A stretch of DNA of 64,000 nt from Methanobacteriota archaeon (GTDB lineage Archaea; Thermoplasmatota; Thermoplasmata; SG8-5; JAGLSY01), in NCBI GenBank assembly GCA_020696385.1, contig JAEHCQ010000001.1:96001-160000 (forward strand), given 5' to 3'. The translations under genes were made by a program, and so were the position numbers. How positions within the stretch are numbered: the stretch's first letter is position 1; each line of letters starts with the position of its first letter. Of the stretch, positions 1-63,921 are shown piece by piece. The notes beneath the pieces were generated by a model that was not told where the DNA came from, made no database searches, and saw only the letters and a program-made list of their open reading frames with translations.

Positions 1-2640
1 CAATGGCCCCAATATCAGTGGACCAGACAAAGTCAATACCTGAAATGAGATTATTATAGATATCATACCCGGAGGCTGTGAATGTCACTGAACCTCCTAC
101 TATGACTGTTGCCGGGTCTGGAGATATGATTATATGATCCAGTGCCCCAACAAGGACCTCGACATCTGCTGATTCGGATATGGTTCCATTCGATGCGGAG
201 ACAATGCCTGTACCGGGCATTGTCCGGGCAGTGAAGAGGCCAGTACCATCGATGGTTCCGACATCGGTGGACCATGTGAAGGAAACACCTGGCAAAATAT
301 TATTGTAAGTATCATAGGCAATGGCGCTGAAGGCCTGAGTACCTCCGACAGTGATCGAGGCGGAATTCGGAGATACGATGATATGATGGATACTTCCCAA
401 AACAATATCCACAATTGCTGAATAACTTATTGTGCCATTGGTCGCTGTGACAATTCCTGTACCTAGAGCTGTCTGGGCAGTGAAGAGACCGGATGCGTCT
501 ATCGAACCCGCATCCGTTGTCCAGGTGAAATCCACACCAGACACGACATTATCGAATACATCATAGGCAATGGCCGTGAACAGTTGATCACTTCCTACCT
601 CGACGGTCGCTGGATCGGGGGTCACCATGATATGATCGAGTGCTCCTACTTTAACATCCACAGATGCCGAGCCAGATACTGTACCGTTTGTCGCGGTCAC
701 TATACCATTCCCAGGACTGGATTGTGCAGTGTATTGTCCGAAGGCATCTATCGACCCCACATCCGTGCTCCAGCTGAAGACCACGCCAGGCATAATATTG
801 TTATAAGCATCGTAGGCGGTTGCGGTGAAAGACCGGGTTCCGGCAACCTCGACCTGGATCGAGTCCGGGGTGACCACAATACGGTCCAAAGGCCCCAGAA
901 CGATATCCACAGTTGCTGAATCATAGACCAGGCCTATGCTTACATTGACGATCCCCGCGCCAGGTACGGTATGGGCAGTGAAGTAGCCAGTTGAGTTAAC
1001 CACACCGACATCCGTACTCCATACGAATGGTGCATTTGGAATTATATTACTGTAAACATCATGAGCAATTGCTGTGAATTGCAAAGTATCTCCAACAGCA
1101 ATTGCTGCCGGGTCAGGTGAAACGGTGATGGTATCGACATCACCGACTATGACATTCACCACGACAGTACCAGTTACGGTTCCATTGGTCGCGGTCACTA
1201 TCCCTGCGCCAGGTACGATCTGAGCCGTGAAGTAACCTGTTGAATTGACAGCTCCCACATCCGTATTCCATACAAAATCCATTCCAGGTATGACATTATC
1301 ATGAATATCATAGGCGGTTGCCATAAATAATTGGCTTTCGCCCACTTTGATCGTTGCCGGATCTGGTATGACCACGATATGATCGACGAGGCCAGGAATA
1401 ACATCCACGGTTGCTGTCGCACTTACCGAACCATTGACTGCGGTAACCTGGCCACTGGCAGGAGTGGTTTGTGCGGTTAAGAGGCCGGATGCATCTATTG
1501 CACCGACATCCGTGAACCAGATAAAGGTGGCACCGGGTATCGGATTATTGAAAATATCGTATGCGGATGCTGTGAAAGCCTGGATTGAGCCAGCAATAAC
1601 AGTCGCAGGGTCAGGAGTGATGATGATATGATCAACTGTTCCCTCAATGACATTGGTAACTGAACTTCCTGTGATCGAGCCATTGGTTGCATTTACAAAG
1701 CCAGAATCCGGTGTGATCTGGGCGGTGAAGAGGCCATTGGCATCGATCGAGCCCACATCCGTACTCCACACAAAGTCGATCCCCAGCAGAGGATTGTCAT
1801 AAATATCATAGCCTATGGCTGTGAAGACCTGCAGCTGACCTACAAGGATCGATGCAGGGTCTGGTGTGACAAGGATATGATCCAACACATCCGCCATCAC
1901 ACTGACAGAGGCCGAGCCAGAGAATGTTCCGTTAGTGGCAGTGACAGTTCCGATCCCGGGTGAGGTCTGAGCTGTTAATTGACCGGATGCATCTATCGAG
2001 CCCATGTCCGTCGACCAAGTGAATACAATACCAGGAACCACATTGTCATGAACATCATAGGCCACTGCAGTGAATGCCTGGCTTCCCCCGACCGTGATCA
2101 TAACTGGGTTCGGGCTTACGATGATCTCATCCACGGATCCGGGAATCACATTGACAGTGGATGAATAACTGATCGAATTGTTCATAGCCATAACAAAGCC
2201 AGTAGCTGGGATGGTCTGGGCTGTGAGCAGACCAGTATCATCAATGGAACCGATATCGGTGGTCCAATCAAAATCATATCCGGAAATTACATTTCCATAA
2301 ATGTCATGGGCTGTCGCGGTGAACTGCTGAGTCATGCCAGCCCCCATCGTGATAGGATCAGGCGTGACCAATATATGATCAAATGAATCCGCGATAACAT
2401 TGACGTTCGCATTACCAGATACAGAGCCGTTCGTCGCCGTTGCGATACCTACGCTGACGATGGTCTGAGCTGTCAATAGCCCAGCAACATCTATTGTTCC
2501 AATATCCGTTGTCCATGTGAATTCGATGTTTGGAATGACATTGTTGTAGGTGTCATAGGCAGTTGCGGTAAATGATCGGGTTCCTCCAACCACCACGAAT
2601 GATGGATCGGGCAGAACCACAATGTGGTCCAGTACTCCAA
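1..2640 (-). repeat. Second block of ~249-bp (83-aa) Ig-like coding repeats in the truncated giant gene (about 10 units visible)
   Basis: Recurrent HIxVxPDP...FTAxAYDxxxN...WxTDxG...TAQT motif at ~249-bp spacing. Confidence 0.9.
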
Positions 2641-39624: not shown

Positions 39625-39924
39625 AAGCCCCATTCTGTTTCTAAGCAGCATTCAACTACGCGTCCTACCAAATTTGGACTTGCACCGAATGGGAGTCGCC
39701 GTTTCATCATTTCCAAACCTTCGTAGCTCAGGGTCAACACCCATCATCGCTCCAGCCCGGCTGTGTCGTTTCTGCGCCCTTGCCATGCCTCTAAGCATAC
39801 CGGCTTGAACCGGTCATTCATGTTTCACCCAAGATCACCGAAATGACTCAGGTGGGAGTGGGGACTTTCCTCGGTTGACTCAGGCGAACCTGAGTCCCCG
39901 TTAGCTGCTCACCTTCTCCTGGCA
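39608..39924 (-). ncRNA. rnpB: Archaeal RNase P RNA (~317 nt)
   Basis: The minus strand has the universal GAGGAAAGUCC (39872-39862) and ACAGAAUGGGGCUUA motifs forming P4. P1: UGCCAGGAGAAGGU / ACCUCCACCUGGCA. P2: AGCAGC / GCUGCU. P3: GACUCAGG-UUCG-CCUGAGUC. P8: ACCGGU-UCAA-GCCGGU. P9: AUGCUU-AG-AGGCAU. CAGAAA and UGAAA T-loop regions are present. P15: GUCC-AAAUUUGGUA-GGAC. Confidence 0.96.
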
Positions 39925-39945
39925 TATATCCATTACCCGGGAGGA

Positions 39946-39959
39946 TTATAACCCTTTCG
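39946..39959 (-). promoter_or_regulatory. BRE + TATA promoter of rnpB
   Basis: Minus strand CGAAAGGG-TTATAA, with the TATA box 22-27 nt upstream of the P1 5' end. Confidence 0.8.
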
Positions 39960-40152
39960 GTTGGGGGACATGATAATCACTGGCCAAGCCATATCATTCA
40001 CAATTATACGAGATAGGCTATGATCGAATCCAATACTAATCATATGCTAATACCTAAATAACCTATACCTGTATTGGCAATAGTAATTTGTAACAATTAA
40101 ACTATTCATATTAACATTAACATACTCTTAAAGTAGTATTTGTGATAATGTA

Positions 40153-40166
40153 GAAACTATTATAAA
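40153..40166 (+). promoter_or_regulatory. Candidate BRE + TATA promoter for the 4903-aa gene
   Basis: GAAACTA-TTATAAA about 160 bp upstream of the ATG; strong RBS GAGGTGGA at 40317-40324. Confidence 0.5.
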
Positions 40167-40327
40167 CATATATCTTATTTGTATGTTATATAGAAAAAGT
40201 GGGCCAGGGGGGCATATTGAGATAAATTTGAGGGGTATAGTAGCATTTTCTATGTTGACCTTATTTTTATTAACTGAGTGAGCCTAACAAAATACTCCTG
40301 CCTCATTGCAAAAAAAGAGGTGGAGAC

Positions 40328-43300
40328 ATGAAATACGCTCATAGCAGAAAGAGTAGTGTGGTAGCTTGCAGAATTTTGGCAATTTTCCTAATGATATCTT
40401 TGATATCCCCAGGAATAGCCTCTGCGTCTAACAGTCTGATGGGGAATGATATCACTTCCCAGGGTCTGGTAGATATTGAACCAGTTATTAACGGAATGGT
40501 CACTAATGATCATGATGCCGATGATGGGGGTGCTAGTCTATTCGGTGCCATAGGCGATACAACGAACTTTGATCACGATATCGAGGTTTCCAATATATTG
40601 TCTCCTGCGGATGCAGGGGTCTATCCCACGGATGCCGTCGAGATCAATGCCACCATAAAAAATCTAGGGATAGAAGAATCCTTTGATGTCAGGTATGAAG
40701 TCGGATATTATGATAATGCCAATACCATCTTTTTCCAGGATGATATGGAGGGGGGCAACAATGGATGGTCCCACTATGGATTCGGTGATGAATGGGAACG
40801 GGGATATCCTTCTGCTGGCCCAGGGTCTGCACATTCGGGCTTCAATTGCTGGGGAACTGACCTCAATTCATATTATTCAAATAATGCAGATCAATGGCTG
40901 GTGTCTCCATCCATCGATCTGACAGCTACAAGCACTGCCACCCTGTCCTTCTGGATGTATGTCAATATTGAGGGATATGTTTGGGATCATGCTTACGTGT
41001 ACATAAATGACGGTGTGGATCATCAACTATATTACTCTGGCACAGGCTCTGGACCACATAACACAGCATGGCAATATTACGAGTACGATGTCTCAGCTTA
41101 CACTGGAGGCATGGTCACCTTGAAATGGAGACTGGATACTGATTCAAGTGTCACTTATACAGGGGTGTATGTGGACGATGTGACCATAAATACCACCATG
41201 GACTCAAAGGTCATACTGCAAGAAGGAATAGAATCTGTTTCCAATCTTCCGGCTGGCGAATCCATGAATTTATTCGGTAGTTCTTACACTTTCACCACAG
41301 AAGGTGATAATTTCTACATGGATGTCGAGTCCCTATTGGCCTCAGACCAGGATACTTCAAATGATATAATGACAGCAAATTATACAATAGCCGATATTCA
41401 TGATGTTGGAGTATCTTCGATAAACTATCCAGAGAATGGAGAGCTTTACCCTATCGGTATGCAGGCGGTGAATGCCACAGTGATCAATAGTGGGACATTA
41501 ACAGAGAGCTTCCTGGTCCAGTGTACGATAAGAGATTCCTCCTATGCAATAGTATACTCGGATACAGAGAGTGTGACAGGAATGCCCTATGGCACAGAAT
41601 CAATAGTGACCTTCGCCCCTCAATGGAATGCCCTTGTAGAAGATGATTACACTATTGAGGTCATGACCATATTGGGCACTGATGAAGATCCATCCAATAA
41701 CAATCTGACAGGATCATTCACCATCGAGGATATAGAAGATGTTGGAACATCCGCTCTTAGATCTCCTGAAATAGGCAATTTCTACCGCGATGGAGCAGTG
41801 GAAATAGATGCTTCCGTGATCAATCACGGCAATGTTCCCCGATCCTTCATAACGAACTACACTATTGGCACAGCGACTGTGACAAATCAGAACATTTTCG
41901 TGGATGACTTTGAATCTGGAGCAATAGGCTGGACTCAAACCGGGGGTATACAGGGACAAAATACAATTGTGGATGAAAATTTTGATGGATCATTCCCTCC
42001 CGCTGGATGGAACGTTATAGATTATCAGGGCTGGGGAATGACCTGGTACCGGAATGATATGGTGGGTAGTGCTAATTATGCAGGAACTGGATTCTGCGCA
42101 GATGCAGACAGCAGTGCCTTGTGGGGGCCTGGAGTTAATACAGGTCTGAGAACACCAAGCTTCAATTTGGTAGGCTACACAGATGCGACCCTGAATTTCT
42201 CACATTCCTACCTTGACTTTACAATAGGGACTGGAGATTATGCAGAGGTCCGTGTGAGCACAAACGGCGGGTTCAGCTGGAGCCAGATAGCGTATTACAA
42301 TGAGCAGCATTCTCCTTTTGGACCCGGTGAAGCTGTAAGCTTAAGCCTCAATGCCTTCCTAGGCCAGCCAAGTGTCACAGTGGAATTTCATTATGATGAT
42401 TATTCATGGGATTTCTGGTGGATGGTCGATGATGTCGAAATAATTGGAACCAGTGCTATGTCCCCTCAATGGCAATTGGGTGCTCCGGCCTTCGGAGATG
42501 TCACAAATGCCCACGGCGGTACAAATTGCTGGGGAACAGATCTCATAGATAATTATTATCCAGATATGTCAGCCACACTTACCAGCCCGAGCTTCAGTCT
42601 TAGTGGCACTAGCAATGAGCGCCTTTCATTCTGGCACACTCACGACTTCTACAATACAGAAGCAGGTGGGATCGTGGAGGTATCGGTTGATAACCTACCA
42701 TGGGTGAAAATAGACCCAATAGCGGGCGATTCATGGTACTCGACAAGCAATGCCTTCAGTGGTGCAGATGCTTTCACAGGAGACACATACCAGGATTGGT
42801 ATCAATCCACCTATGACATGACCCCTTTCAATGGCAGTAACAATGTTCGCTTGCGATTCAGTTTCCAATCCACATCAAATATAGCCTGTCATGAGGGATG
42901 GTATATCGACGATGTAATGGTTACTGGCGAGATAATTTCTCTCAATAATATCATTGGTTGGGGAGATGAAATGGTCTCCAACTTGCAACCAGGAGAAGAA
43001 GTGGATGTATTCGGTAATTCCCACATCTTCACCAGTGAGGGAATGTACCACATCGAGGTAAAGACATTGCTGGCCTCAGATGAGGATAACAGTAATGATA
43101 TCATCAGTGGTTTCTTTGAGATCAAGAATGTCTTCGATGTAGGAGCGAGTGTCATAAATTCACCAGCAATTGGTGTAGCCTACCCAGTGGGAGCATTGGA
43201 GATAAATGGAACAGTGACTAATTTCGGGAATGTTCCAGCCAGCTTCATAACCAATTATACAATAGGATCCATGAATGTCACATCCAATATCCTATATTCC

Positions 43301-46300
43301 GATGATCTTGATTCGGGAGCGCTCGGATGGTGGACGTCTGATGGAGGGAATGAAGTCATTTATAATGAAGAGGGCAGCGGTACTGACTCGAGCAATTGGT
43401 ACTCAACACCTGGCGATGATCTATTCATATCTGCAGGAGATGGATTCTGTTATGATGTTAGTAGTACTACAGGGGATGGCATTTCATTATACTCATCCGG
43501 GAATTTCATCACATTCGACCTCTCCGGGAATGCTGGGGCTGTTTTGGATATGTCACTGGACGCTTACTTATTCTATGGAACGTCATCCAGAGTGAAATAT
43601 CTGGGAGTTTACGGGGGCTCAACTCCAGCAACATCATCTTTGATAGATGCCTCCAGCGCATATACAGTCTCCAATTCTGGATCAACTATTAGCTGGGATA
43701 ATATCAATATACCGTCATCTCCGTATTATATCAAAATTCTGGTAGGATTCCCCTCCAGCCTTAACACTTTTGCTTTTGATAACTACACATTCAAATTAAC
43801 TCAGCCAGGCTCTAGCTTTGAGATCGGAGCTCCATCATATGGAGATATCACAAATGCCAATAGCGGCGCAAATTGCTGGGGAACCGATCTTACAAGCAAT
43901 TATGTTCCGGACACCACCTGCAAGGTCACCTCACCAGCCTTCGATCTTTCCACAGGAACTGACAATGAAAAACTCAGTTTCTGGCATACACATGATTTCT
44001 ATAGCAGTGAAGGCGGTGGTATCGTGGAGATATCAACAGATAATTCCACATGGACCAAGGTCGATCCGATAGCAGGCGATACATGGTATTCCACAAGCAA
44101 TGCTTTCAGTGGTGCAGATGCATTCACAGGAGATACATATCGAGATTGGTACCAATCCACCTTTGATCTGAGCCCCTTCAGTGGCAATAGTGATGTACGC
44201 GCACGTTTCACTTTCCAATCCTCATCAGATCCAACATGCAATGAAGGATGGTACATCGATGACATCGTGGTAACTGGCGATATCATTGTTTTAAGCAGTA
44301 TCATTGATTGGGGAGACCAAATGGTATCCAACCTTCAGCCGGGAGAAGGTATCAATGTCTTTGGCAACACCTACACATTCACCAGCGAGGACACATATTA
44401 CATCCAGATGAATACACAGCTGGCAACTGATGAAGATAATACAAACGATCAGGTGGATGGATTCTTTTTGATAGATAATTTATACGATGTGGGAGTAGTT
44501 TCCATAGATTCACCACTTGATGGTGGAGTATACGGCGCATTATCAGTACCGATAGAAGCCACTGTTGAGAACTATGGTAATGTTCCAGTTAGCTTCATAA
44601 CAAACTACACATTAGGAAATTACACACTTGATGAGATCTCGATACTAGAAGATGATTTCGAAGCTGGAGCCCCAGGTTGGGTTGCTACCGGAGGGATCAT
44701 GGCCTTTGATGAATCGGATATTCAAGTGATATCTTTCCCCACCTTCAGTTCTGTACCAACTAACCATCCTTTCACATTTACATATCCAGCCACCGGCGCT
44801 GGAACCATATATCTCGACGCAAAGGATGGGGATTTTGATTCTACAGCCGAGTACATAGATGTATGGGCGGAGACCACGACCGGAACATATATTGGCCGGG
44901 GTCAGATCGGAGCGCAGAATAATCCCAACTGGATGCCCACAACGCCTCATTCGTGGACCGTGTCAGCAGCACAGATCAATGCATGGGGAGCAAGTGGGAC
45001 GATCAATATCGTATGCTCTTTTTCCTCAGGGGTCAATGACCTTGGAGGAGACAATGAGGTGAGAATAAGACTCACCTATCCCTCAGCGGTCACACCATGG
45101 GAACTCGGAGTGCCTTTCAACCAGGATATAACTTCAGCTAATAGCGGAACAAATTGCTGGGGTACGGATCTGACAGCGAATTACATATCAGACAGCGAGG
45201 TCACACTCACATCACCAAGCTTTGACCTAACTCCAAGTATGATGAACGAAGAGCTCAGCTTCTGGCACTCACATGATTTCTATAATACAGAGGCTGGGGG
45301 TGTGGTCGAGATATCCACTGACCCAGCACACACCACCTGGACAAAGATAGATCCGATAGCTGGAGATTCCTATTACAATTCATGCAATGCCTTTTCCGGA
45401 GGTACTGCCTTCACAGGTGATACTTATCGGGACTGGTATCAATCAACATTCGATCTGAGCGCGTACAGGAGCTACAATGATATCCAGATACGATTCAATT
45501 TCAAATCATCGACCTCGGCCACATGCCATGAAGGATGGTTCATTGACGATGTGAACATCACAGGGGTTGCCTTGGTAGGCATGAATGTACTGGACACCAA
45601 AGACGAAATGGTTGTGAACCTACAGCCAGGAGAACAGTTCAATGTCTTTGGAAATACCTTTAATTTCACAAAAGAGGAATACTATTGGCTCAATGTGGAG
45701 ACCAGACTTGCAAATGATGAGATGAATAGCAATAATTACTCATCATCCTTATTTGAGATCTACAATTACGATGATGTAGAAATTGTCAGTATAGAGCCCT
45801 TTGATCAAAATATCATGTACCCGATCAGTATCTATTCTCCAAATGCCACTATAAGCAATATCGGCAATTACTATGCCTCAGGGTTCAATGTGACCTGCGA
45901 TATAAGAAATGGAATGGGAACCCTGGTCTATTCGGACACGGTGGCCATATCGACCATAATGTTGCCAGGGGAGACACGCACCATCGATTTCCTTGATTGG
46001 AACGCACTCACGGAGACCGACTACATAATGACCATTCATATTGACTACGCCCTGGATGAGGACAGTTCCAATGATGATCTGGCAGTTGGTTTCATAATAG
46101 AAGATGTTTACGATGTGGGAGCTTATGACATAACAGGAATGGTGAATGGTGACACTTACACTACCGGAAGCTATGGCATCTCGACATTGGTAAGGAACTT
46201 CGGTAATATACCTCAACCGAGCTTCGACACAATATGCCAGATAACTGACTCACTTGGCATAACCGTTTACTCCAATATCCAAACAATTGGACTGATGCCG

Positions 46301-49300
46301 GATGAAGAAGCGATGATATCTTTCACTCCAACCTGGGATGCTTTTGTAGAAGGAGTGTACACGATAGATTGCTTCACATTGCTAGCAGGTGATGAGTTCA
46401 ATACAAATAATGGAACCCAGATCACCGTGATAATAAACGATATCTATGATGCCACGGTCTTATCCATCGATTCTCACACAAATGGAGACACTTACCCAAC
46501 TGGCGAACAACGCATAACTGCGAATATCGGTATATTGGGTAATGTGCCAAGCCCTTCTTTCGTGGTGGCGTGTACGGTGACCAGTTCCACCAATAATCAA
46601 GTATACTACGATGAAGAAACTGTTCCAGCAGGACTGTCACCAGGAGCCTTTGTGGATATATTGTTCTCACCTTTCTGGAACGTCAATGTGGAGGACACAT
46701 ACCACATCTCGGTGGAAACCAGATTATTGGGCGATGAAGTACCGACCAATGATCAAATGGACATCATGATATTCATCGACGATATCTACGATCTGGGTAT
46801 TGTTTCAATGGATCCATTTGTCAATAGTGGTTCATACCCGATAGATACATACCAACTAGAGGCGACTGTACAGAATCTGGGTAATGTTCCAACATCTGGA
46901 TTCGAGGAAGTGTATTTCGAGATCCAAGATGACATGGGCATACCTTTGTACAACAATACGGTAATGATAGGAAGCGGACTGCTCCCAGGAGATACTGAGA
47001 CCATTGTCGTTTGCCCTGAATGGAATGCCTCGATCGAAGGCATCTATTACCAGTATGCCACAACGACAATGGCAATAGACCACAACACAGCGAATGACGA
47101 TATGCTCATATGGATGGAGATAGACGATGTGCTGGATCTGGAGGTCACTTCTATTGATACTTTTACCAATGCTGGCACTTATCCAGGAGGAAGTTACACC
47201 ATAAATGCCACACTGTCCAATTTGGGACATCTGGATATCATGAACCAATTGGTGGAATGCAAGGTCGCTTCTTCCAGTGGAACGGTCGTCTACACAAGCC
47301 AATACACATTACCTTCTCTGGCTGCAGGGAATTCAACCCAGATAACCTTCACACCAGACTGGGCGATCAATATCGAAGACACCTACATCGTGCAGGTCTG
47401 GACAGCCCTCACTGGCGATGAGAACCCAGGTAATGATCTGAGAAGCATGGTGATATATCTGGACAATCTACACGATGCAGAGGCATTGTCCATAGAGACC
47501 TTCATCGATGGAGGGGTGTATTATGCAGATTCATACTTTGTGAACGGCACTATCTGGAACAATGGTAATGTACCCATATCGGGATTTGATGTTTCTGTCA
47601 CTGTGATCGACTCATCCAATACCCAGGTCTATTACTCCACGACCACGATCTCATCCCTTCTATTGCCAGGAGAGAATGCCAATGTCTCGATCCAGCCAGC
47701 CTGGATACCGACTCAGCCAGATACATACAGGATCAAACTGAGGACCACCCTATCGGGCGATGAAGTCCCTTCGAACGATGAGATAGAATACATGATTCAG
47801 ATCGAAGGACATGATGTGGGAGCCATAGATATTCCTGGCTTCACAAACAATGCCACATACAATACTGGAACCTATCAGGTAGATGGGATAATCAAGAACT
47901 TCGGAAGCTTGCAGGAGAATGATGTGGGAGTCACATGCGATGTACGAGACTCCACTAATGCCATAGTGTTCACGACCACTCACATTATACCATCCATCAA
48001 CCCAAGTGAGGAAGTGGCATTTACTTTTGCGACGAACTGGACAGTGGCGATCGAGGATACATACACCATAGAGGTCTTCACCACACTGAACTATGACCTT
48101 ATCACCATTAATGATCTAACATCCAGATCGATCATCATAGATGATCTCCATGATATCGCGGTCATATCCAGCGCCCCCTTCGTAGAAGGAGGTACTTATT
48201 CGGCAGGCACATACTCGATAAATGTCACCCTGGACAATCTGGGAGACATAGATGAGGCCAATGTACTGGTAAACTGCACTATCGTAGACTCACTCAGTAC
48301 CATCGTTTACAGCTCGGAGTTCACAATACCATCAATATCCAACATGCAGACCATATCCTTCACACCCGACTGGAATGCCATGATACTGGATGATTACACA
48401 ATGACAATATCGGTTATATTCCCGACAGATGAGAATGCGGCAAATGACATACTCACTGTCAACTTCACTATCGGTATTTATCACGATATTGCCATGATCG
48501 GAACCCCCACCTTCCTTGATGGAGGGATCTATCCAACTGGTTCATATGCCATGAAAGCGGTCATTGAGAATATTGGAACCGAAACAGAGTCGCCTGTTTT
48601 CATAGCCTGTGAGATATTTGACTCGAGTAACACTTCAGTATATATGAGCCTGGGAGGAGTGGGGATCGTCAATTCTGGTGATCAGGCAGAGGCCACTATC
48701 GGCCTTATATGGAATGCACTGATAGAAGGAGATTATACCATCAAACTTGATGCGATCCTACCCACGGATCAGAATATGGCCAATAATCAGTTCATCATAA
48801 GCATATCAATAGATGATAAGCATGATATCGCGGTGACTGATATCCAAACCTTCCTTGATGGAGGAATCTACAGCACTGGCACCTACACTATAAATGCCAC
48901 CGTGGAAAATGCAGGAACCTCTCTGGAAAACAATATCATGGTCAACTGTACCATCAGAGATTCGTTGAATGTGATTGTGTATTCGTCAGAATACACAATC
49001 ACATCAATGGACTGGGGAACCAGCATGGACATAATTTTCCTACCTAACTGGACAGCGAATATTGAGGAAGATTATACGATCAGCGTCACTTCATATCTCG
49101 CCATCGATGATGACAATACCAATAATCAGACCCTGAACACCTTCACCATCGATGAATTCCACGATATCGTGGTAACTGGCATGGGTCCCTTCACAGAAGG
49201 AAGCTCATACAATCAGGGTGATTACAACATAACAGCCGACATAGTCAATAATGGATCTATAGAGGATACGAATATCCTGATCAACTGCACCGTGACTGAC

Positions 49301-52300
49301 GGAATTGGCACCATCGTTTATTGGGATGAAGTAACTGTAGCCTCCTTGCTTTCCGGAGAGAATACCACAGTGACCTTCCTGCCATGGACTGCTGATTCGG
49401 AAGATAATTTCACGATTACCATAACCTCATCCCTGGCCAATGATGATAATACCATCAATGATGTAATGGCATGCCATATCGTCATTGATGATTATCACGA
49501 TATAGCATTGACTGGCTTCGGACCTTTCATTGACGGTGGCGTATACCAGACAGGGACGAATACCATGACCGCCTCGATAACGAACATGGGCACTATCGCG
49601 GAGATCGATATCACTGTAAATTGCATAATTTATGATTCCACGATGTCCATTGTGTATTTCAGAAATTCATTCATACCTCTCATCAATCCCGGCCAGACGA
49701 TCATCGTGACCTTCAGCCCGGATTGGACAGCGAATATTGAGGATGATTATAGGATATATTATGAATGCTGGCATCCACTGGATGATGATCCAACAAATGA
49801 TATTGAAAATATCTACATAACCGTGGATGAGTACCATGATATTGGTCTTACGACCACGCAACCTTTTGCAGATCTCGGAGTTTATCCAGCTGGAACCTAC
49901 ACGATCGATGTGTCAATAGAGAATTTGGGAACTATCGACGAGTACGGCATGGAAGTTGTGTGCATGATCATCGATTCTTCCAGTGGTGTTGTTTACAGCC
50001 AGAACCTGACGATCGCCTTCATCGCCATGGGAGATACTATGATAATAACCTTCATTCCAGACTGGATACCATCAGCAGACGATTCCTACACGCTGATAGC
50101 CACCGTGGGACTGGCCAATGATGAGAACATTATCAATGACCAGCACTCCACCCTGTTCTACATAGACATGACACCACCCACTGCAGATCCAGGACCTGAT
50201 GATTTCACCTTTGAGGATTCCATATATTTCTTCGATGGCACAGGCTCCTATGATCAACATGGTATCATGAATTACACATGGGACTTCGGAGATGGACAGA
50301 TCGGATATGGGCCAGCACCAGATCACACATATTCCCTCCAGGGCATCTACTTCATCAATCTGACAGTGGCTGATGCCATGGGATTGACAGACACGAATAT
50401 GATGACCCTCATGGTCAATAATGTGAATCCGACAGCTGATGCTGGAATGGATATATCTATTCCAGAAGGTGATATTGTTAACTTCGACGCTTCAAACTCA
50501 ACTGACACGATATCCGATATACCCACCCTTGTTTACACATGGGACTTCGGGGATGGTAATACATCCAATTTGATGACCCCCGCTCACACATATTATTCTT
50601 CAGGAACCTACATGGTCACCCTGGAGGTCATGGACGATGATGGAGCGATCAGTTATGCTTACATCAATGTGACCGTGATAAATGTGGGACCAATAGCCGT
50701 TCCAGGAGGACCATACATGGATGATGAGGGAACCATCATATCCTTTGACGCTTCGGGATCTTATGAGCCTGGAAGCGACATCATACTCTATGAATGGGAC
50801 TGGAACAATGACGGCATCTATGATGAGAGCTCGGTCGGACCATCAGCGAACCACACATGGTATGCCGCTGGTGTTTACGCCATATCACTGAAGGTCACTG
50901 ATGAGGATGGTCATTCACACGAAACAGGCACCAATGTGACGATAAATGATGTAGCTCCTGTTTCCGTACATGGAGGTCCATACAGCGGAAATGAAGGAAC
51001 TATCATAACCTTCAATGGCAGCAGCTCCTACGAACCAGGTGATGATATCACACTCTATGAATGGGACCTGGACAATGATGGAACATTCGAGACCATCGGC
51101 ATGGAAGTCAGTATGTCCTGGTTCACCGCCGGTGTCTACACGGTCGGACTCAGGGTGACAGACGAGGATGGTTCCTCCGATATTTCCACAACGACCGTGG
51201 ATGTCATTGACGTGGCCCCGGTCGCGATAATAATCGGAGGATCTATAGTGGTGGAGGAAGGAGAATCCATAATACTGGATGGCTCAAATTCCTATGAACC
51301 GGGAGATGATATAATTCTGTATGAATGGGATATGGATAATGATGGAACATTCGATCATACCAGCATCTCACCTCTCTTTGTCAATAATTGGGGCGCTCCT
51401 GGAACCTATACTGTCCTTCTCCAGGTAACGGATGAGGACGGATCGGTAGGTAACGAAACGACCATGATCATCATATCGAATGTGATGCCGATCGCCGATC
51501 CATCTGGACCATACCAGGGATCTGAAGGACAGGCGATCTCATTCAATGCCGGAGCCTCTTATGAGCCTGGTGATGATATAATTCTGTATGAATGGGACTG
51601 GAACAATGACGGGGTATATGATGAGAGCTCGGCAGTTCCAGGTATCACACACCAATGGGACGTCCCAGGAACCTACACCCTGCGCCTCATGGTCACTGAT
51701 GACGATGGTACAACGGACATGGCAATGACAACTGTGGTTGTTCATAATGTGGCTCCGATCCCAGTTCCTGGCGGACCTTATTCTGATCTTGAAGGAGCGG
51801 CGATTGTCTTTGATGCCAGTGGTTCCATCGAGCCAGGTGATGACATACTGCTCTATGAGTGGGACTTTGACAATGATGGAATATTTGATTCCATATCCGG
51901 AAGCCCATTATCATCCATGACATGGTATTCGGCAGGGATGTTCAATGTCCTTCTAAGAGTGACAGATGCGGATGGATCCTCGGGTATGGCCACCGTGATG
52001 GTGACCATTTCAGATGTAGCCCCTGTTGCGGTTCTCGGTGGACCTTACACAGGTGATGAAGCATCGTCTGTCATGTTGGATGCTTCGGCATCCTCCGAAA
52101 TAGGCAATGATATCATTCTCTATGAATGGGACTGGAACAATGATGGAACATATGACTTCAGTTCCAGCAACCCATGGGCTGCAAACACATGGTACACCTC
52201 AGGTGCTTACACCGTGTGGCTGAAAGTGACAGATGAGGAAGGATCAATTGATCTGTCTTCAGCAGTGGTGAATGTCAATGATATCGCCCCAACAGCCGAT

Positions 52301-55039
52301 GCTGGCGATCCACAGGTTTGTAATGAGGAAGAACTCATAATACTGGATGGATCTGGTTCTACCGAACCTGGCGACGATATCGTCCTTTACGAATGGGACT
52401 TCGATGATGATGGAACATATGACTTCAGTTCCAGCAACTTCTGGGCCATAAACATCTGGAGCCTACCAGGAACTCATATTGTGACGCTCAGGGTGACAGA
52501 TGCGGATGGATCTTCGGATATGTCGTTGACGACGATTGTCGTCAACGACATAGCTCCTGTTGCAGTAGCTGGCGGACCTTACCAGGGTTCGGAAGGCCAG
52601 ACCGTTTCATTCAGTGCCGAGGCATCTTATGAGCCTGGTGATGATATCATTCTCTATGAATGGGATTGGAACAATGACGGAGTTTATGAGGATAGCTTTG
52701 CCACCTCGGGTGTGACACATACCTGGGACTCGGCTGGCACCTACATAATACGCCTCATGGTGACAGATGTGGATGGTTCCACGAATATCGCCACGACCAC
52801 GGTGGAGATCATGGATATTGCCCCGGTCGCCATGCCAGGCGGACCGTATTCCGAAACTGAAGGAACAGCCATTAACTTCGATGCTTCAGCCTCTTATGAG
52901 CCTGGAAATGATATAATTCTGTATGAATGGGACTTTGATAATGATGGGGTATTTGATTCCATATCCGGAGATCCAATGTCTTTCTGGACATGGGACTCAG
53001 CAGGTGTTTCCAATATCCTTCTCAGGGTCACGGATTCGGATGGATCAACAGATACCGCGACGGTCATTGTCACTGTTTTGGATGTGGCTCCTGTCGCGGT
53101 GCTCGGAGGACCTTACACCACGGATGAAGGAATATCCATAAGGTTCGATGCTTCAGCCTCTTATGAGCCTGGAAATGATATCGTTCTGTATGAATGGGAT
53201 ATAGATAATGATGGAGCATATGATGTTTCATCATCCGACCCATGGACAGACCATACCTGGAACACGGCCGATGTCTACGTCATCGGCCTTCGTGTGACTG
53301 ATTCGGATGGTTCACACGATGAGATCACCGTGACAGTCACTGTCAATGATCAGGCTCCTGTCGCGATAGCGGGTGGACCATATTCATGCAATGAGGGCGA
53401 ACTCCTTGTACTGGATGCTGGAGATTCTACAGAACCTGGAGATAATATCATATCGTACGAATGGGATATGGACAATGACGGGGTCTTTGAAGAGAGTTAT
53501 ACCATACCTTATCTCATGCACACGTGGTACACACCAGGAACTTACACAGTGGGACTCATGGTCACAGATACAGATGGTTCTACAGATACTATCACCCTGG
53601 ATGTCCTTGTACAGAACATCGCCCCGGTGGCGGATCTATCCGGACCTTATCAGGGATCGGAAGGGCAATTGATATCATTCAATGCCGAGGCCTCCTATGA
53701 GATCGGTGATGACATCGTTCTGTATGAATGGGATTGGAACAATGATGGAGCATATGACATTGAGACCGATGTGGCTGGTGCGAACCATCAATGGGATGAG
53801 CCCGGAACCTACACCCTGCGTCTCAGAGTGACTGATGAAGATGGTTCTTCTGATACGACCACGACCTCTATCGAGATAGGCCATGTGGCTCCGACAGCCG
53901 TACCTGGAGGACCTTATTCATGCAATGAGAGCGAGGTATTGGTATTCGATGTTTCAGCCTCTTATGAGCCTGGTGATGATATCGTCCTGTATGAATGGGA
54001 CCTGGACAATGATGGAATCAATGACGTGGTATCATCACAGCCAGTATGCTCCTATTCCTGGGATTCAGCTGGTCAAGTATCGGTCTATCTGAAGGTGACC
54101 GATTCTGACGGTTCAACCGACATTGTGATATTCTCGGTCATGATATATGACATCGCCCCAACCGCGATGATCGTATCTGGACAATCTGGAGATGAGGCCT
54201 CACCAATGGCCTTCGATGCTTCAGCTTCCCATGAGCCAGGTAATGATATAATTCTGTATGAATGGGATTGGAACGGGGACGGTATCTTCGACCTCATTGA
54301 TCCTTCGCCATGGGCTCAGAATACCTGGTACACACCCGGCAACTATACTGTTTGGCTGAGGGTGACGGACGAGGAAGGATCCTATGACCTGGCAAGCATG
54401 AACATCACCATCGAGGATCTGGATGACATCGATGGCGATGGATTCCTGGATATTTGGGAAGAAGCACTTCATACGGACCCACTGGACCCATATGACATGC
54501 CCATCGATACAGACAATGACGGCATGCCAGATGGGGACCACTACAATAGCCAGATGTGGATGGACAATGATGACGACAATGACGGTGTCCTTGACAGTGG
54601 TGATTCAGCTCCAACCGACGACTCGAAATACAAAGAGCCAACCGCCTGGGATAACTGGTGGTGGCTGGCACTTCTGCTAACTATCATCCTCATACTGTTG
54701 ATCGTACTGATCATCCTGTACCTCATGGAAGAGGAAGAGGAAGAAGAGGAAGAAGAAGAAGAGCTTGATGATGAGGAATTCGAAGAGGAATATGAGGAAG
54801 AGTTCGAAGATGAGCTCGCAATGGGAGCTTATGAAGCTGAAGAACCCGAAATGGAAGTCGATGAGGAACCCGAGATGGAGTTCGAAGAGGAAGAAGCCCT
54901 GGAGATGGATATCGATGAAGAACCATCATTGGACGAAAGGACCCAGATCCTTCTGGAGAAACTGGAAAACCTTTACCAGGATGGAAAGATAAAAGAGGAT
55001 ACATACATCAATAACAAGGAAAAACTGTTGGGGAATTAA
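40328..55039 (+). CDS. Giant 4903-aa type I membrane surface protein (signal peptide, ~18 CARDB-like Ig domains with 4 interrupted by jelly-roll/cleaved-adhesin-like domains, 16 PKD domains, Ca-binding Asp repeats, TM helix, acidic tail, SHOCT-like end)
   Basis: RBS GAGGTGGA; hydrophobic N-terminus; recurring (H/Y)D(I/V)xV...NxG...DExxxND units; four NCWGTDL...(W/V)Y(I/V)DD jelly-roll units; YTWDFGDG x2 and YEWDxxxDG x14; DIDGDG / DTDNDGMPDG / DNDDDNDGVLD; WWWLALLLTIILILLIVLIILYL; poly-Glu; LEKLENLYQDGKIKEDTYINNKEKLL. Confidence 0.95.
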   Translation: MKYAHSRKSSVVACRILAIFLMISLISPGIASASNSLMGNDITSQGLVDIEPVINGMVTNDHDADDGGASLFGAIGDTTNFDHDIEVSNILSPADAGVYPTDAVEINATIKNLGIEESFDVRYEVGYYDNANTIFFQDDMEGGNNGWSHYGFGDEWERGYPSAGPGSAHSGFNCWGTDLNSYYSNNADQWLVSPSIDLTATSTATLSFWMYVNIEGYVWDHAYVYINDGVDHQLYYSGTGSGPHNTAWQYYEYDVSAYTGGMVTLKWRLDTDSSVTYTGVYVDDVTINTTMDSKVILQEGIESVSNLPAGESMNLFGSSYTFTTEGDNFYMDVESLLASDQDTSNDIMTANYTIADIHDVGVSSINYPENGELYPIGMQAVNATVINSGTLTESFLVQCTIRDSSYAIVYSDTESVTGMPYGTESIVTFAPQWNALVEDDYTIEVMTILGTDEDPSNNNLTGSFTIEDIEDVGTSALRSPEIGNFYRDGAVEIDASVINHGNVPRSFITNYTIGTATVTNQNIFVDDFESGAIGWTQTGGIQGQNTIVDENFDGSFPPAGWNVIDYQGWGMTWYRNDMVGSANYAGTGFCADADSSALWGPGVNTGLRTPSFNLVGYTDATLNFSHSYLDFTIGTGDYAEVRVSTNGGFSWSQIAYYNEQHSPFGPGEAVSLSLNAFLGQPSVTVEFHYDDYSWDFWWMVDDVEIIGTSAMSPQWQLGAPAFGDVTNAHGGTNCWGTDLIDNYYPDMSATLTSPSFSLSGTSNERLSFWHTHDFYNTEAGGIVEVSVDNLPWVKIDPIAGDSWYSTSNAFSGADAFTGDTYQDWYQSTYDMTPFNGSNNVRLRFSFQSTSNIACHEGWYIDDVMVTGEIISLNNIIGWGDEMVSNLQPGEEVDVFGNSHIFTSEGMYHIEVKTLLASDEDNSNDIISGFFEIKNVFDVGASVINSPAIGVAYPVGALEINGTVTNFGNVPASFITNYTIGSMNVTSNILYSDDLDSGALGWWTSDGGNEVIYNEEGSGTDSSNWYSTPGDDLFISAGDGFCYDVSSTTGDGISLYSSGNFITFDLSGNAGAVLDMSLDAYLFYGTSSRVKYLGVYGGSTPATSSLIDASSAYTVSNSGSTISWDNINIPSSPYYIKILVGFPSSLNTFAFDNYTFKLTQPGSSFEIGAPSYGDITNANSGANCWGTDLTSNYVPDTTCKVTSPAFDLSTGTDNEKLSFWHTHDFYSSEGGGIVEISTDNSTWTKVDPIAGDTWYSTSNAFSGADAFTGDTYRDWYQSTFDLSPFSGNSDVRARFTFQSSSDPTCNEGWYIDDIVVTGDIIVLSSIIDWGDQMVSNLQPGEGINVFGNTYTFTSEDTYYIQMNTQLATDEDNTNDQVDGFFLIDNLYDVGVVSIDSPLDGGVYGALSVPIEATVENYGNVPVSFITNYTLGNYTLDEISILEDDFEAGAPGWVATGGIMAFDESDIQVISFPTFSSVPTNHPFTFTYPATGAGTIYLDAKDGDFDSTAEYIDVWAETTTGTYIGRGQIGAQNNPNWMPTTPHSWTVSAAQINAWGASGTINIVCSFSSGVNDLGGDNEVRIRLTYPSAVTPWELGVPFNQDITSANSGTNCWGTDLTANYISDSEVTLTSPSFDLTPSMMNEELSFWHSHDFYNTEAGGVVEISTDPAHTTWTKIDPIAGDSYYNSCNAFSGGTAFTGDTYRDWYQSTFDLSAYRSYNDIQIRFNFKSSTSATCHEGWFIDDVNITGVALVGMNVLDTKDEMVVNLQPGEQFNVFGNTFNFTKEEYYWLNVETRLANDEMNSNNYSSSLFEIYNYDDVEIVSIEPFDQNIMYPISIYSPNATISNIGNYYASGFNVTCDIRNGMGTLVYSDTVAISTIMLPGETRTIDFLDWNALTETDYIMTIHIDYALDEDSSNDDLAVGFIIEDVYDVGAYDITGMVNGDTYTTGSYGISTLVRNFGNIPQPSFDTICQITDSLGITVYSNIQTIGLMPDEEAMISFTPTWDAFVEGVYTIDCFTLLAGDEFNTNNGTQITVIINDIYDATVLSIDSHTNGDTYPTGEQRITANIGILGNVPSPSFVVACTVTSSTNNQVYYDEETVPAGLSPGAFVDILFSPFWNVNVEDTYHISVETRLLGDEVPTNDQMDIMIFIDDIYDLGIVSMDPFVNSGSYPIDTYQLEATVQNLGNVPTSGFEEVYFEIQDDMGIPLYNNTVMIGSGLLPGDTETIVVCPEWNASIEGIYYQYATTTMAIDHNTANDDMLIWMEIDDVLDLEVTSIDTFTNAGTYPGGSYTINATLSNLGHLDIMNQLVECKVASSSGTVVYTSQYTLPSLAAGNSTQITFTPDWAINIEDTYIVQVWTALTGDENPGNDLRSMVIYLDNLHDAEALSIETFIDGGVYYADSYFVNGTIWNNGNVPISGFDVSVTVIDSSNTQVYYSTTTISSLLLPGENANVSIQPAWIPTQPDTYRIKLRTTLSGDEVPSNDEIEYMIQIEGHDVGAIDIPGFTNNATYNTGTYQVDGIIKNFGSLQENDVGVTCDVRDSTNAIVFTTTHIIPSINPSEEVAFTFATNWTVAIEDTYTIEVFTTLNYDLITINDLTSRSIIIDDLHDIAVISSAPFVEGGTYSAGTYSINVTLDNLGDIDEANVLVNCTIVDSLSTIVYSSEFTIPSISNMQTISFTPDWNAMILDDYTMTISVIFPTDENAANDILTVNFTIGIYHDIAMIGTPTFLDGGIYPTGSYAMKAVIENIGTETESPVFIACEIFDSSNTSVYMSLGGVGIVNSGDQAEATIGLIWNALIEGDYTIKLDAILPTDQNMANNQFIISISIDDKHDIAVTDIQTFLDGGIYSTGTYTINATVENAGTSLENNIMVNCTIRDSLNVIVYSSEYTITSMDWGTSMDIIFLPNWTANIEEDYTISVTSYLAIDDDNTNNQTLNTFTIDEFHDIVVTGMGPFTEGSSYNQGDYNITADIVNNGSIEDTNILINCTVTDGIGTIVYWDEVTVASLLSGENTTVTFLPWTADSEDNFTITITSSLANDDNTINDVMACHIVIDDYHDIALTGFGPFIDGGVYQTGTNTMTASITNMGTIAEIDITVNCIIYDSTMSIVYFRNSFIPLINPGQTIIVTFSPDWTANIEDDYRIYYECWHPLDDDPTNDIENIYITVDEYHDIGLTTTQPFADLGVYPAGTYTIDVSIENLGTIDEYGMEVVCMIIDSSSGVVYSQNLTIAFIAMGDTMIITFIPDWIPSADDSYTLIATVGLANDENIINDQHSTLFYIDMTPPTADPGPDDFTFEDSIYFFDGTGSYDQHGIMNYTWDFGDGQIGYGPAPDHTYSLQGIYFINLTVADAMGLTDTNMMTLMVNNVNPTADAGMDISIPEGDIVNFDASNSTDTISDIPTLVYTWDFGDGNTSNLMTPAHTYYSSGTYMVTLEVMDDDGAISYAYINVTVINVGPIAVPGGPYMDDEGTIISFDASGSYEPGSDIILYEWDWNNDGIYDESSVGPSANHTWYAAGVYAISLKVTDEDGHSHETGTNVTINDVAPVSVHGGPYSGNEGTIITFNGSSSYEPGDDITLYEWDLDNDGTFETIGMEVSMSWFTAGVYTVGLRVTDEDGSSDISTTTVDVIDVAPVAIIIGGSIVVEEGESIILDGSNSYEPGDDIILYEWDMDNDGTFDHTSISPLFVNNWGAPGTYTVLLQVTDEDGSVGNETTMIIISNVMPIADPSGPYQGSEGQAISFNAGASYEPGDDIILYEWDWNNDGVYDESSAVPGITHQWDVPGTYTLRLMVTDDDGTTDMAMTTVVVHNVAPIPVPGGPYSDLEGAAIVFDASGSIEPGDDILLYEWDFDNDGIFDSISGSPLSSMTWYSAGMFNVLLRVTDADGSSGMATVMVTISDVAPVAVLGGPYTGDEASSVMLDASASSEIGNDIILYEWDWNNDGTYDFSSSNPWAANTWYTSGAYTVWLKVTDEEGSIDLSSAVVNVNDIAPTADAGDPQVCNEEELIILDGSGSTEPGDDIVLYEWDFDDDGTYDFSSSNFWAINIWSLPGTHIVTLRVTDADGSSDMSLTTIVVNDIAPVAVAGGPYQGSEGQTVSFSAEASYEPGDDIILYEWDWNNDGVYEDSFATSGVTHTWDSAGTYIIRLMVTDVDGSTNIATTTVEIMDIAPVAMPGGPYSETEGTAINFDASASYEPGNDIILYEWDFDNDGVFDSISGDPMSFWTWDSAGVSNILLRVTDSDGSTDTATVIVTVLDVAPVAVLGGPYTTDEGISIRFDASASYEPGNDIVLYEWDIDNDGAYDVSSSDPWTDHTWNTADVYVIGLRVTDSDGSHDEITVTVTVNDQAPVAIAGGPYSCNEGELLVLDAGDSTEPGDNIISYEWDMDNDGVFEESYTIPYLMHTWYTPGTYTVGLMVTDTDGSTDTITLDVLVQNIAPVADLSGPYQGSEGQLISFNAEASYEIGDDIVLYEWDWNNDGAYDIETDVAGANHQWDEPGTYTLRLRVTDEDGSSDTTTTSIEIGHVAPTAVPGGPYSCNESEVLVFDVSASYEPGDDIVLYEWDLDNDGINDVVSSQPVCSYSWDSAGQVSVYLKVTDSDGSTDIVIFSVMIYDIAPTAMIVSGQSGDEASPMAFDASASHEPGNDIILYEWDWNGDGIFDLIDPSPWAQNTWYTPGNYTVWLRVTDEEGSYDLASMNITIEDLDDIDGDGFLDIWEEALHTDPLDPYDMPIDTDNDGMPDGDHYNSQMWMDNDDDNDGVLDSGDSAPTDDSKYKEPTAWDNWWWLALLLTIILILLIVLIILYLMEEEEEEEEEEEELDDEEFEEEYEEEFEDELAMGAYEAEEPEMEVDEEPEMEFEEEEALEMDIDEEPSLDERTQILLEKLENLYQDGKIKEDTYINNKEKLLGN
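45770..50160 (+). repeat. 13 tandem ~113-aa CARDB-like coding repeats
   Basis: Counted from unit starts DDVEIV, YDVGAY, YDATVL, YDLGIV, LDLEVT, HDAEAL, HDVGAI, HDIAVI, HDIAMI, HDIAVT, HDIVVT, HDIALT, HDIGLT. Confidence 0.85.
50170..54420 (+). repeat. 16 tandem PKD-domain coding repeats (~267 bp, 89 aa)
   Basis: Two WDFGDG units followed by 14 YEWDxxxDG...VTDxxG units. Confidence 0.9.
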
Positions 55040-59214: not shown

Positions 59215-59217
59215 GCG

Positions 59218-60861: not shown

Positions 60862-60866
60862 ATTAT

Positions 60867-62018: not shown

Positions 62019-62022
62019 TCCT

Positions 62023-63920: not shown

Positions 63921-63921
63921 T

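Follow-up and report, generated by a model that had tools for sequence, protein, structure and literature searches.

The 64,000-nucleotide stretch of DNA analyzed here, from an uncultured Thermoplasmata archaeon of sediment (the window; positions 96001–160000 of contig C11 in the source genome, G000) harbors three giant genes, designated A, B, and C, on either side of rnpB, the gene for the archaeal RNase P RNA. The initial annotation, made from the DNA sequence alone, had described three giant surface proteins around rnpB; the open reading frames (ORFs) are confirmed here, and rnpB is recovered as a match to RF00373 in the 1,738-nt spacer between A and C (38590..40327). We compared these genes with related genomes, which carry G numbers such as G002 and G037, and with the relative P0004; gene integrity, domain order, the pattern of paralogy, and presence or absence among genomes are observed directly in these data. 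The principal features of the locus are the following.

1..12580, minus strand: N-terminal 4,193 codons of gene B (open frame 2..12589, open at the window start)
12577..12596, minus strand: A/B junction, where the TGA of A overlaps the ATG of B (ATGA), with GGAGGTG 6 nt upstream of the ATG
12577..38589, minus strand: gene A, 8,670 amino acids, 901 kDa, net charge about −717
39612..39920, minus strand: rnpB (RF00373), 134.4 bits against a gathering threshold of 84, model positions 1–288
40328..55039, plus strand: gene C, 4,903 amino acids, 535 kDa, net charge about −684

Integrity of the giant genes

The 8,670 consecutive stop-free codons of A are beyond the reach of chance. Gene B extends 13.4 kb past the window start, and its full frame (G000:C11:82619-108580) encodes 8,653 residues with a single terminal stop (898 kDa; net charge about −714). 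Because B runs on outside the window, the locus totals 22,226 residues (66.7 kb, or 2.9% of the 2.28-Mb source genome, which is 94.5% complete in 50 contigs); the giant size given by the initial annotation thus stands, but its figure of more than 17,700 residues is superseded by the completed B.

The longest exact DNA repeat across the 70-kb locus is 87 nt. Pairs of repeated 31-mers fall overwhelmingly at the collinear offsets between A and B of 25.6–25.9 kb (391 of 429, with 378 at 25.9 kb), and the remaining 38 pairs are at most 300 nt apart. Repeats inside A share a mean protein identity of 48% and a maximum of 66%, and intact relatives with the same domain order as A and B are found in G006 and G007. 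Because exact repeats are short, internal identity is low, and intact relatives occur elsewhere, collapse or misjoining of repeats is unlikely, and genes A, B, and C are real and intact.

Domain architecture of A and B

A and B share a common N-to-C order that consists of a predicted signal peptide, three tip domains, a distal Big_2 arm, a head module, a stalk of 60 repeats, a C-terminal foot domain, and a predicted transmembrane helix. The features of A are as follows.

38494..38589, minus strand: signal-peptide-like segment, from hydropathy
37534..38424, minus strand: tip, three Asp-box immunoglobulin (Ig)/Fn3-like domains of ~100 residues
32368..37119, minus strand: distal arm, 19 full Big_2-like repeats
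28600..32349, minus strand: head module (residues 2081–3330), with Ig-like domains, five DUF11/CLIPPER domains, VWA, and DUF7619
30760..31104, minus strand: VWA domain, with metal-ion-dependent adhesion site (MIDAS) residues DTSGS...TPIWD...TDGDD; Pfam VWA 31.7 bits against a cut-off of 23.8
13534..28494, minus strand: membrane-proximal stalk, 60 full Big_2-like repeats of 83 residues
12781..13326, minus strand: foot domain (C-terminal domain, CTD), ~155 ordered residues, with motifs AGWNL[VI]GYP and GEGYWV
12607..12663, minus strand: predicted transmembrane helix (residues 8643–8661), followed by NVRSRRWIL

Both A and B match Big_2, Big_1, DUF11, and DUF7619 in Pfam, and a custom profile with a repeat period of 83 residues finds 79 full repeats in A (19 + 60) and 80 in B (20 + 60); the Ig-type repeats anticipated by the initial annotation are therefore present in both, and C carries PKD (16 stretches) and CARDB units (see below). 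One Asp is invariant in all 159 repeats of A and B, and Lys plus Arg make up only 0.5% of repeat residues. An N-G-S/T sequon occupies column 51 in 77% of the 159 repeats, and the source genome encodes a homologue of the STT3/AglB-type oligosaccharyltransferase. On these two grounds N-glycosylation is plausible, and A and B are probably modified in this way about once per repeat. The only STT3/AglB match in the genome sits inside a frame of 2,427 codons (G000:C46:116843-124123), which is unusually long for an oligosaccharyltransferase.

The N-termini of A and B consist of a basic stretch followed by a hydrophobic segment (Kyte–Doolittle 19-residue mean of 2.14 and 2.19), and the corresponding segments of all three proteins fall in the range of 2.14–2.19, in keeping with the signal peptides that had been called from the ORFs. 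Each protein has one strong C-terminal hydrophobic segment (2.52 in A, 2.53 in B, and 3.45 in C), which is followed in A and B by 9 and 23 residues, respectively, that are mostly basic or polar. These hydrophobic ends fit a predicted signal peptide and a predicted transmembrane helix, as judged by hydropathy. The earlier statement that the complete proteins end in a transmembrane helix holds for A but not for C, in which ~105 residues follow, including a poly-Glu run. Archaeosortase sorting signals (PGF-, PEF-, or VPXXXP-CTERM) and S-layer families are not found in NCBIfam or Pfam scans of A, B, and C, and the tail of A (...DISGTMSFILILIGLLVMVFNVRSRRWIL) contains neither PGF nor PEF ahead of the transmembrane helix. 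Other proteins of the source genome do end in a PEF-type tail, and the genome has two exosortase-family genes.

DUF11 occurs in five stretches of the head module of A, where it scores 85.5 bits against a cut-off of 24.6, and the NCBIfam model B_ant_repeat reaches 127.7 bits. DUF11 was given the new name CLIPPER in a 2025 survey, according to which DUF11 and DUF7619 are isopeptide-type domains in the stalks of fibrillar adhesin-like proteins from both bacteria and archaea (PMC12617251). The first MIDAS motif, DxSxS, takes the form DTSGS in A, DNSDS in B, and DTTGS in the G007 orthologue, followed by TP[IVL]WD and TDG[DF]D, and the loops between these motifs vary in length among the three proteins. 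A search of Protein Data Bank (PDB) sequences with the head module of A gave a best E-value no lower than 0.0014. Outside the window, a frame of more than 6,525 codons that leaves the contig end (G000:C50:28840-48414) has a match to the DUF11 part of this head, with 30% identity.

The tip units carry an Asp-box-like Y-S-x-D-G-G-x-x-W motif. An AlphaFold model obtained from an alignment of 11 units from A, B, G006, and G007 has a mean confidence (pLDDT) of 88 and is predicted to form an Ig/Fn3-like sandwich, the best Foldseek match of which is to the Fn3-like modules of CbhA from Clostridium thermocellum (E 1.9e-3, TM-score 0.6–0.7), with a weak Ig-like match of the tip unit to a chain of the Deinococcus HPI S-layer (E 8.2e-3). 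All Pfam matches of the tip are below threshold (Reelin_subrepeat-B in 6 of the 11 units and Kre9_KNH in 3 of 11), and the best match in a PDB sequence search is Reelin, with an E-value of 0.11.

A putatively coupled pair with an old distal part and a homogenized base

The coding-strand sequence over the last codons of A and the start of B reads AGGAGGTGGATATTATGA, and this overlap has the classic layout of predicted translational coupling. A and B are collinear over 8,284 residues with 64% identity, compared with ~45% for the internal repeats among themselves. This identity is unevenly distributed. Residues 1–6390 of A share 32–72% amino acid identity with B, with the minimum in the VWA window, and the identity at four-fold degenerate third positions is 0.14–0.49, which is about saturated; residues 6390–8630 share 75–87% amino acid identity and 0.59–0.86 at four-fold third positions, and the feet are 87–90% identical. 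Because identity is high at both levels only in this region, the membrane-proximal quarter, including the foot, was homogenized recently, most simply by gene conversion, and the distal three quarters are old and diverged. The alignment through the repeat arrays contains at most one gap column per 250-column window, so that repeat number has been held constant between A and B; the collinear repeat of B is the best match for 56 of the 79 repeats of A by our own offset criterion.

Relatives of the full A/B module are found in G006, G007, G008 (as fragments), and G037 (a 4,596-codon frame, 39% identity). In a collection of 5.8 billion proteins, we found a single giant A/B relative, P0004, with 57% identity; the other nine matches are DUF11-type giants of 25–30% identity, and the three of these with named sources carry bacterial-type names. 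The repeat counts in the closest family members are as follows.

G006 orthologue, 7,671-codon frame: distal arm of 19 repeats, stalk of 45 repeats
G007 orthologue, 9,637-codon frame (G007:C9:43180-72090): distal arm of 19 repeats, stalk of 74 repeats
P0004, 5,755 residues, on a 20-kb contig: distal arm of 19 repeats, stalk of at least 31 repeats

Across the family the distal arm is fixed at 19–20 repeats, and the length of the stalk varies. The G007 orthologue ends ~16 residues past the foot and lacks the transmembrane helix that A, B, and the G006 protein possess, and the anchor therefore comes and goes within one orthologous family.

Gene C encodes an unrelated putative fiber

The sequence of C is unrelated to those of A and B. 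The motif GAGGTGGAG sits 4 nt ahead of its ATG, and the product is arranged as follows.

40571..45763, plus strand: distal part, four MAM-like units alternating with CARDB-like units, plus unassigned inserts
45764..50167, plus strand: 13 contiguous CARDB-like units of ~113 residues each
50141..54406, plus strand: 16 PKD units of ~89 residues each
54425..54490, plus strand: bacterial TSP3-type Asp-rich repeat, 28.2 bits against 25
54662..54718, plus strand: predicted transmembrane helix, very hydrophobic (3.45)
54719..55036, plus strand: predicted cytoplasmic tail, poly-Glu/acidic, with a subthreshold SHOCT-like end

In total, C comprises ~45 domains, among them 21 CARDB-like and 16 PKD units; the strongest scores are those of PKD_4 (660.9 bits) and InhA-like MAM (57.9 bits against 26.9), and CARDB is also matched. 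A PDB sequence search with the first 1,967 residues of the mature protein returned no match. The tail beyond the predicted helix contains a run of 13 Glu, and its last 26 residues align with SHOCT (PF09851) over profile positions 3–28 of 28, although with 16.3 bits against a cut-off of 27 (E 0.0083) and with GvpG scoring alike. A similar end motif is found on several other giant proteins of the source genome.

The foot domain

The foot of A and B belongs to a large family with no Pfam model. The last 251 residues of A have no Pfam match at E ≤ 5, and a protein search with them finds matches in 32 of 41 genomes (the source genome included), with up to 55 in a single genome and 17 in G000. In 13 of these 17 G000 proteins the foot lies 1–3 residues from the C-terminus, and among them only A and B continue into a tail of 70–85 residues that bears the predicted transmembrane helix. 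A profile built from 23 sequences matches 11,923 of 1.84 billion cluster representatives at E ≤ 1e-3, 4,496 at 1e-10, and 1,025 at 1e-30. Among the best 150 of the 11,923 representatives, the foot ends no more than 4 residues from the end of the protein in 131, and 13 of the 19 exceptions have 68–115 residues after it. The record titles of foot carriers include Thermoplasmata archaeon, Methanomassiliicoccales archaeon UBA147/UBA280, and Candidatus Proteinoplasmatales archaeon SG8-5.

An AlphaFold model of the foot is predicted to be mostly β, with a pLDDT of 77 and a predicted TM-score (pTM) of 0.71. Foldseek against the PDB gives no match at E ≤ 0.001 (the best, thiamin pyrophosphokinase, has an E of 0.051 and a TM-score of 0.19), and a PDB profile search gives a best E of 0.27. 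With VIA-align, the best Z of 5.0, to RCK_C domains over ~66–82 aligned residues, lies within the common range of that tool. The nearest clusters in the ESM Atlas are unnamed and consist of Thermoplasmatota-rich “hypothetical proteins.”

Thermoplasmata may possess a hitherto undescribed system of surface attachment with the foot at its center, although we hold this only as a tentative and rather doubtful proposal. Most carriers stop at the foot and lack a membrane anchor (13 of 17 in G000 and 131 of the 150 best representatives), and a minority, A and B among them, add a tail of 70–115 residues with a predicted transmembrane helix. Contacts between feet could keep the unanchored proteins on the cell, with the anchored ones acting as docking sites or as seeds of a lattice. 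In that case A and B would serve at once as fibers and as the membrane anchors of a whole layer of secreted proteins, and gene conversion of their feet would preserve the contact between feet.

Long frames are common in the source genome: the stop-to-stop frames that reach 1,200 codons or more number 66 and account for 19.0% of its sequence, and the 22 that reach 2,000 codons or more account for 10.1%. Many of these have a signal-like start and end in a foot domain, in a transmembrane segment with an acidic tail, or in a PEF-type tail, and the class with a transmembrane segment and acidic tail ends in a ...DGKISEE.Y... motif.

The rnpB region in related genomes

The spacer and the genes flanking the giants contain the following additional features; no transfer RNA genes were found in the window.

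39269..39608, minus strand: four cassettes (two of 78 nt and two of 92 nt) behind the 3′ end of rnpB
55135..55521, plus strand: eIF5A; conserved backbone, outside the giant-gene insertions
55518..56351, plus strand: arginase-family (agmatinase-like) gene; conserved backbone
56424..63920, plus strand: variable glycosylation cluster, with a 251-residue protein, DUF354, three GT4 glycosyltransferases, a DUF6541-like membrane protein, and a methyltransferase

In the region 39269–39624, the two 78-nt cassettes are 83% alike and the two 92-nt cassettes 90% alike, and each cassette ends, in the direction of rnpB, with the last 16 bases of rnpB (0–2 mismatches). The 92-nt cassettes are predicted to fold into a strong hairpin (z −4.1 and −3.8), formed by the 16-base copy and a complementary stretch inside the cassette; the 78-nt cassettes have no such hairpin (z +1.5 and +0.4). 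Part of the cassette array is shared with G002. We considered that A and B might be the cargo of an element integrated at rnpB and rejected this, since the 16-mer occurs only in the four cassettes and does not recur at the far end of B, so that the A–B segment is not bounded by rnpB-end repeats. Past the end of B lie housekeeping genes that are conserved in G002 (Lsm, two glutamine-amidotransferase-type genes, and an aspartate/ornithine carbamoyltransferase).

G002 is a genome of the same genus (93% complete, 30 contigs) with a backbone of 85–90% DNA identity. There, the amidotransferase/Lsm block stops 45 nt short of the position of the stop codon of B and is followed by ~1.1 kb with a Fic/DOC gene and then by rnpB, which is 105 nt from eIF5A. 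The locus thus lacks both the 52 kb of A plus B and the 15.2 kb made up of C and its flanks, and searches of the rest of G002 with the head module of A and the first 1,000 residues of C found no orthologue. In G004, of the same family, rnpB lies 257 nt from eIF5A, with an AAA_16 ATPase gene on the other side; rnpB was not found in G001 (78% complete) or G003 (74% complete). In G006 and G007, rnpB and the A/B orthologue are on different contigs, and the distribution of the relatives of C differs from that of the relatives of A. The comparison of the rnpB–eIF5A region that the initial annotation had proposed thus returned relatives without the A/B–rnpB–C arrangement, and on the synteny in these four genomes (G002, G004, G006, and G007) we reject a functional meaning of the adjacency to RNase P.

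Judged by this synteny, the ancestral order is rnpB beside eIF5A, the giants fill two variable slots beside rnpB, and A, B, and C belong to the strain-variable (flexible) genome. Compared over 38590–39268 with contig C31 of G002 and contig C80 of G004, the slot 3′ of rnpB differs in content among the three genomes, with A and B in G000, the Fic/DOC gene in G002, and the AAA_16 ATPase gene in G004. It has the look of a recombination hot spot, and the 3′ end of rnpB is possibly a hot spot for the exchange of giant genes.

The glycosylation operon that had been placed downstream of C is present as a cluster from about 56424, but eIF5A and the arginase-family gene intervene. Its first ORF (251 residues; 56424–57179) has no Pfam match at E ≤ 0.01. 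The G+C content is 0.35–0.36 over 60001–64000, at the end of the glycosyltransferase cluster, versus 0.45–0.50 in the rest of the window, and the cluster in the same place in G002 has almost no DNA similarity to that in G000; this is probably an exchanged surface-glycan island. Since G002 carries its cluster in the absence of the giants, the idea that the cluster is dedicated to them is not borne out.

Discussion

We favor, at a probability of roughly 0.6, a reading in which all three giants are fibrillar, adhesin-like proteins of the cell surface that belong to the flexible genome and are probably N-glycosylated. The domains and the hydrophobic ends support the proposal of the initial annotation that these are exported, membrane-anchored, repeat-built surface proteins with adhesion-type modules. 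Fibrillar adhesins have been defined as a class (Monzon et al. 2021, 10.1101/2020.12.07.414375). A and B resemble them in a tandem Ig-like stalk (79 and 80 Big_2-like repeats) that would project an adhesive domain and in the presence of DUF11/CLIPPER and DUF7619, and C has a stalk of CARDB-like and PKD units. The adhesive domain corresponds to the VWA in A and to the InhA-like MAM in C, and in B to aligned motifs only; each protein has the single hydrophobic C-terminal segment of a candidate surface anchor. They differ from fibrillar adhesins in their archaeal host, in the mass of A and B (~0.9 MDa each), in the position of the VWA of A between two repeat arrays rather than at an end, in the anchor of A and B (an unnamed foot plus a predicted transmembrane helix), and in the occurrence of a coupled pair of paralogues.

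Among individual giants, Ebh of Staphylococcus aureus (~1.1 MDa) has a secretion signal and anchoring transmembrane and cytoplasmic domains (PMC6548404), so that a signal peptide with a C-terminal transmembrane helix has a precedent among bacterial giants. Ebh has the same layout as A and B (a signal, then a very long rod of repeats, then a transmembrane anchor at the C-terminus) and is likewise a giant whose surface effects depend on size, but it bears no sequence relationship to them and resides in a bacterial host with a peptidoglycan wall. The repeat families of Ebh are FIVAR, GA, and DUF1542, none of which is among the Pfam or NCBIfam matches of A, B, and C. The giant adhesins SiiE, LapA, and MpIBP consist of dozens of bacterial Ig-like repeats that form a rod of hundreds of nanometers, with acidic residues at the domain borders, and adhesins of this RTX type, secreted by type I secretion systems (T1SS), have no Sec signal peptide; they leave the cell with the C-terminus first and are held by an N-terminal retention module. 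A, B, and C resemble these in the Ig-like repeat rod but differ in the predicted N-terminal signal peptide and C-terminal transmembrane helix; no RTX family is matched in Pfam or NCBIfam, and T1SS_rpt_143 appears only in C and below threshold (30.6 bits versus 66.05). Finally, halomucin of Haloquadratum walsbyi (9,159 residues) has a predicted signal sequence, is secreted and mucin-like, and surrounds the cell (PMC4378361). It is archaeal and in the size class of A and B, which, judged against this description, differ from it as Big_2/DUF11/VWA fibers with a predicted transmembrane anchor.

Export, topology, length, glycosylation, and adhesion are predicted, and the proposed mechanism would run as follows. 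Each protein would be exported by Sec through its N-terminal signal peptide and held in the membrane by its single C-terminal helix; because the anchor is C-terminal, the N-terminus would point away from the cell. In A and B, the foot would lie beside the membrane and the 60-domain Big_2 stalk would bear a head in which DUF11/CLIPPER domains of the isopeptide type accompany a VWA domain that would bind in a metal-dependent manner through its MIDAS, beyond which the 19–20-domain Big_2 arm and then the three Ig/Fn3-like tip domains would extend. An Ig-like domain is about 3.3–4.5 nm long, and ~95 such domains would give a reach of ~0.3–0.4 μm. A and B would be made from one message by coupled translation, and gene conversion would keep the proximal quarter alike while the distal, ligand-facing parts diverged, yielding two specificities on one chassis. 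C would be an independent second fiber (MAM-like/CARDB/PKD) with an acidic cytoplasmic tail, and in sediment the fibers would attach the cell to particles and polymers or to other cells.

Several points weigh against this reading. The fiber and adhesion functions are predicted from sequence, with a hypothetical binding partner; the signal peptides and transmembrane helices are predicted from hydropathy, and the length per domain is a general figure for Ig-like domains. The VWA of A is mid-fiber rather than at the tip, B has no Pfam VWA call at E ≤ 0.01 and only its motifs align, and the tip domains are generic Ig/Fn3-like units in which Foldseek recognized no lectin or enzyme fold (best E 1.9e-3). 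Furthermore, the negative charge, the one sequon per repeat, and the conserved repeat number fit a spacer or shield equally well.

The most serious competitor, which we judge distinctly less probable though far from negligible, is accordingly a polyanionic glycocalyx or steric shield, in which a charged, glycosylated brush without specific binding, selected for its length, would keep viruses, episymbionts, predators, mineral surfaces, or the cell’s own shorter surface proteins at a set distance. The net charges of −717, −714, and −684 with almost no Lys or Arg in the repeats, the sequon column, and the near-absence of gaps in the arrays despite saturated synonymous sites all point this way, and there is precedent in Ebh, SraP, and SasG, which block adhesion in a size-dependent manner (PMC6548404). 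The difference in gene content between congeners also fits surface genes pressured by viruses. As a generalization, presence or absence between close relatives is the pattern of surface genes under such pressure. We nonetheless favor binding over a shield because the MIDAS-bearing site is conserved in A, B, and the G007 protein and because the distal three quarters diverge faster than the base of the stalk, which suggests ligand-driven change; the MAM-like modules of C also speak against a pure shield. An essential envelope scaffold, in which A, B, C, and the foot-domain proteins form a wall-like layer in place of an S-layer, is improbable. The abundance of the foot (17 ORFs in G000; 32 of 41 genomes, with up to 55 matches in one) and the 19% of the genome given to frames of at least 1,200 residues are in its favor, but in the 93%-complete G002 A, B, and C are missing from the locus and, by the searches run, from elsewhere; a scaffold that cells cannot do without should be present throughout the genus, and no S-layer family is matched in Pfam or NCBIfam.

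We consider it very improbable that the locus is a single co-evolved adhesion or glycocalyx system, organized around rnpB with its own glycosylation operon, as the initial annotation had it. Adjacency and divergent orientation in G000 suggest such a unit; however, rnpB and eIF5A are direct neighbors in both same-family genomes in which rnpB was found, A/B orthologues lie off the rnpB contig in G006 and G007, the relatives of C are distributed unlike those of A, and the G002 glycosyltransferase cluster exists without giants. Least probable of all is an assembly artefact, whether from collapsed or concatenated repeats or from two strain variants joined in tandem. Repeat-rich genes in a metagenome-type assembly of 50 contigs invite the suspicion, but it is countered by the 48% mean identity of repeats within a gene, the 87-nt limit on exact repeats, the saturation of synonymous sites between A and B over three quarters of their length, the clean stop/start overlap with a predicted signal peptide of B’s own, and the intact 7,671- and 9,637-codon relatives with the same domain order in independent genomes.

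Giant archaeal surface proteins (halomucin, PMC4378361) and archaeal fibrillar adhesin-like DUF11 proteins (PMC12617251) are already known from these sources. A literature search on giant archaeal and Thermoplasmatota adhesins gave, among the papers listed, none on the proteins described here, although supplements may hold gene lists, and the terms “adhes,” “S-layer,” and “giant” are absent from the main text of a paper on Proteinoplasmatales (PMC9123169). New features are the two paralogues in tandem, putatively coupled and with a mosaic left by conversion; a distal arm of fixed repeat number on a stalk that varies; the presence/absence polymorphism of giants within a genus; and the large membership and C-terminal placement that mark the unnamed foot family.

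At ~900 kDa each, A and B are comparable in size to halomucin, which was at one time the largest protein known from an archaeon. The locus shows that gain or loss of giant genes of 15–52 kb can separate members of one genus and that paralogues can diverge distally while their base stays alike. The foot is the more general lead, with ~12,000 cluster representatives, no Pfam model, no clear solved fold, and a position at the end of most of its carriers. SG8-5/Proteinoplasmatales, named in the titles of some foot-domain relatives, is a sediment group of active protein degraders by RNA labeling, and if the source organism belongs to it and the fibers work as proposed, they would indicate how such sediment cells hold particles or neighbors.

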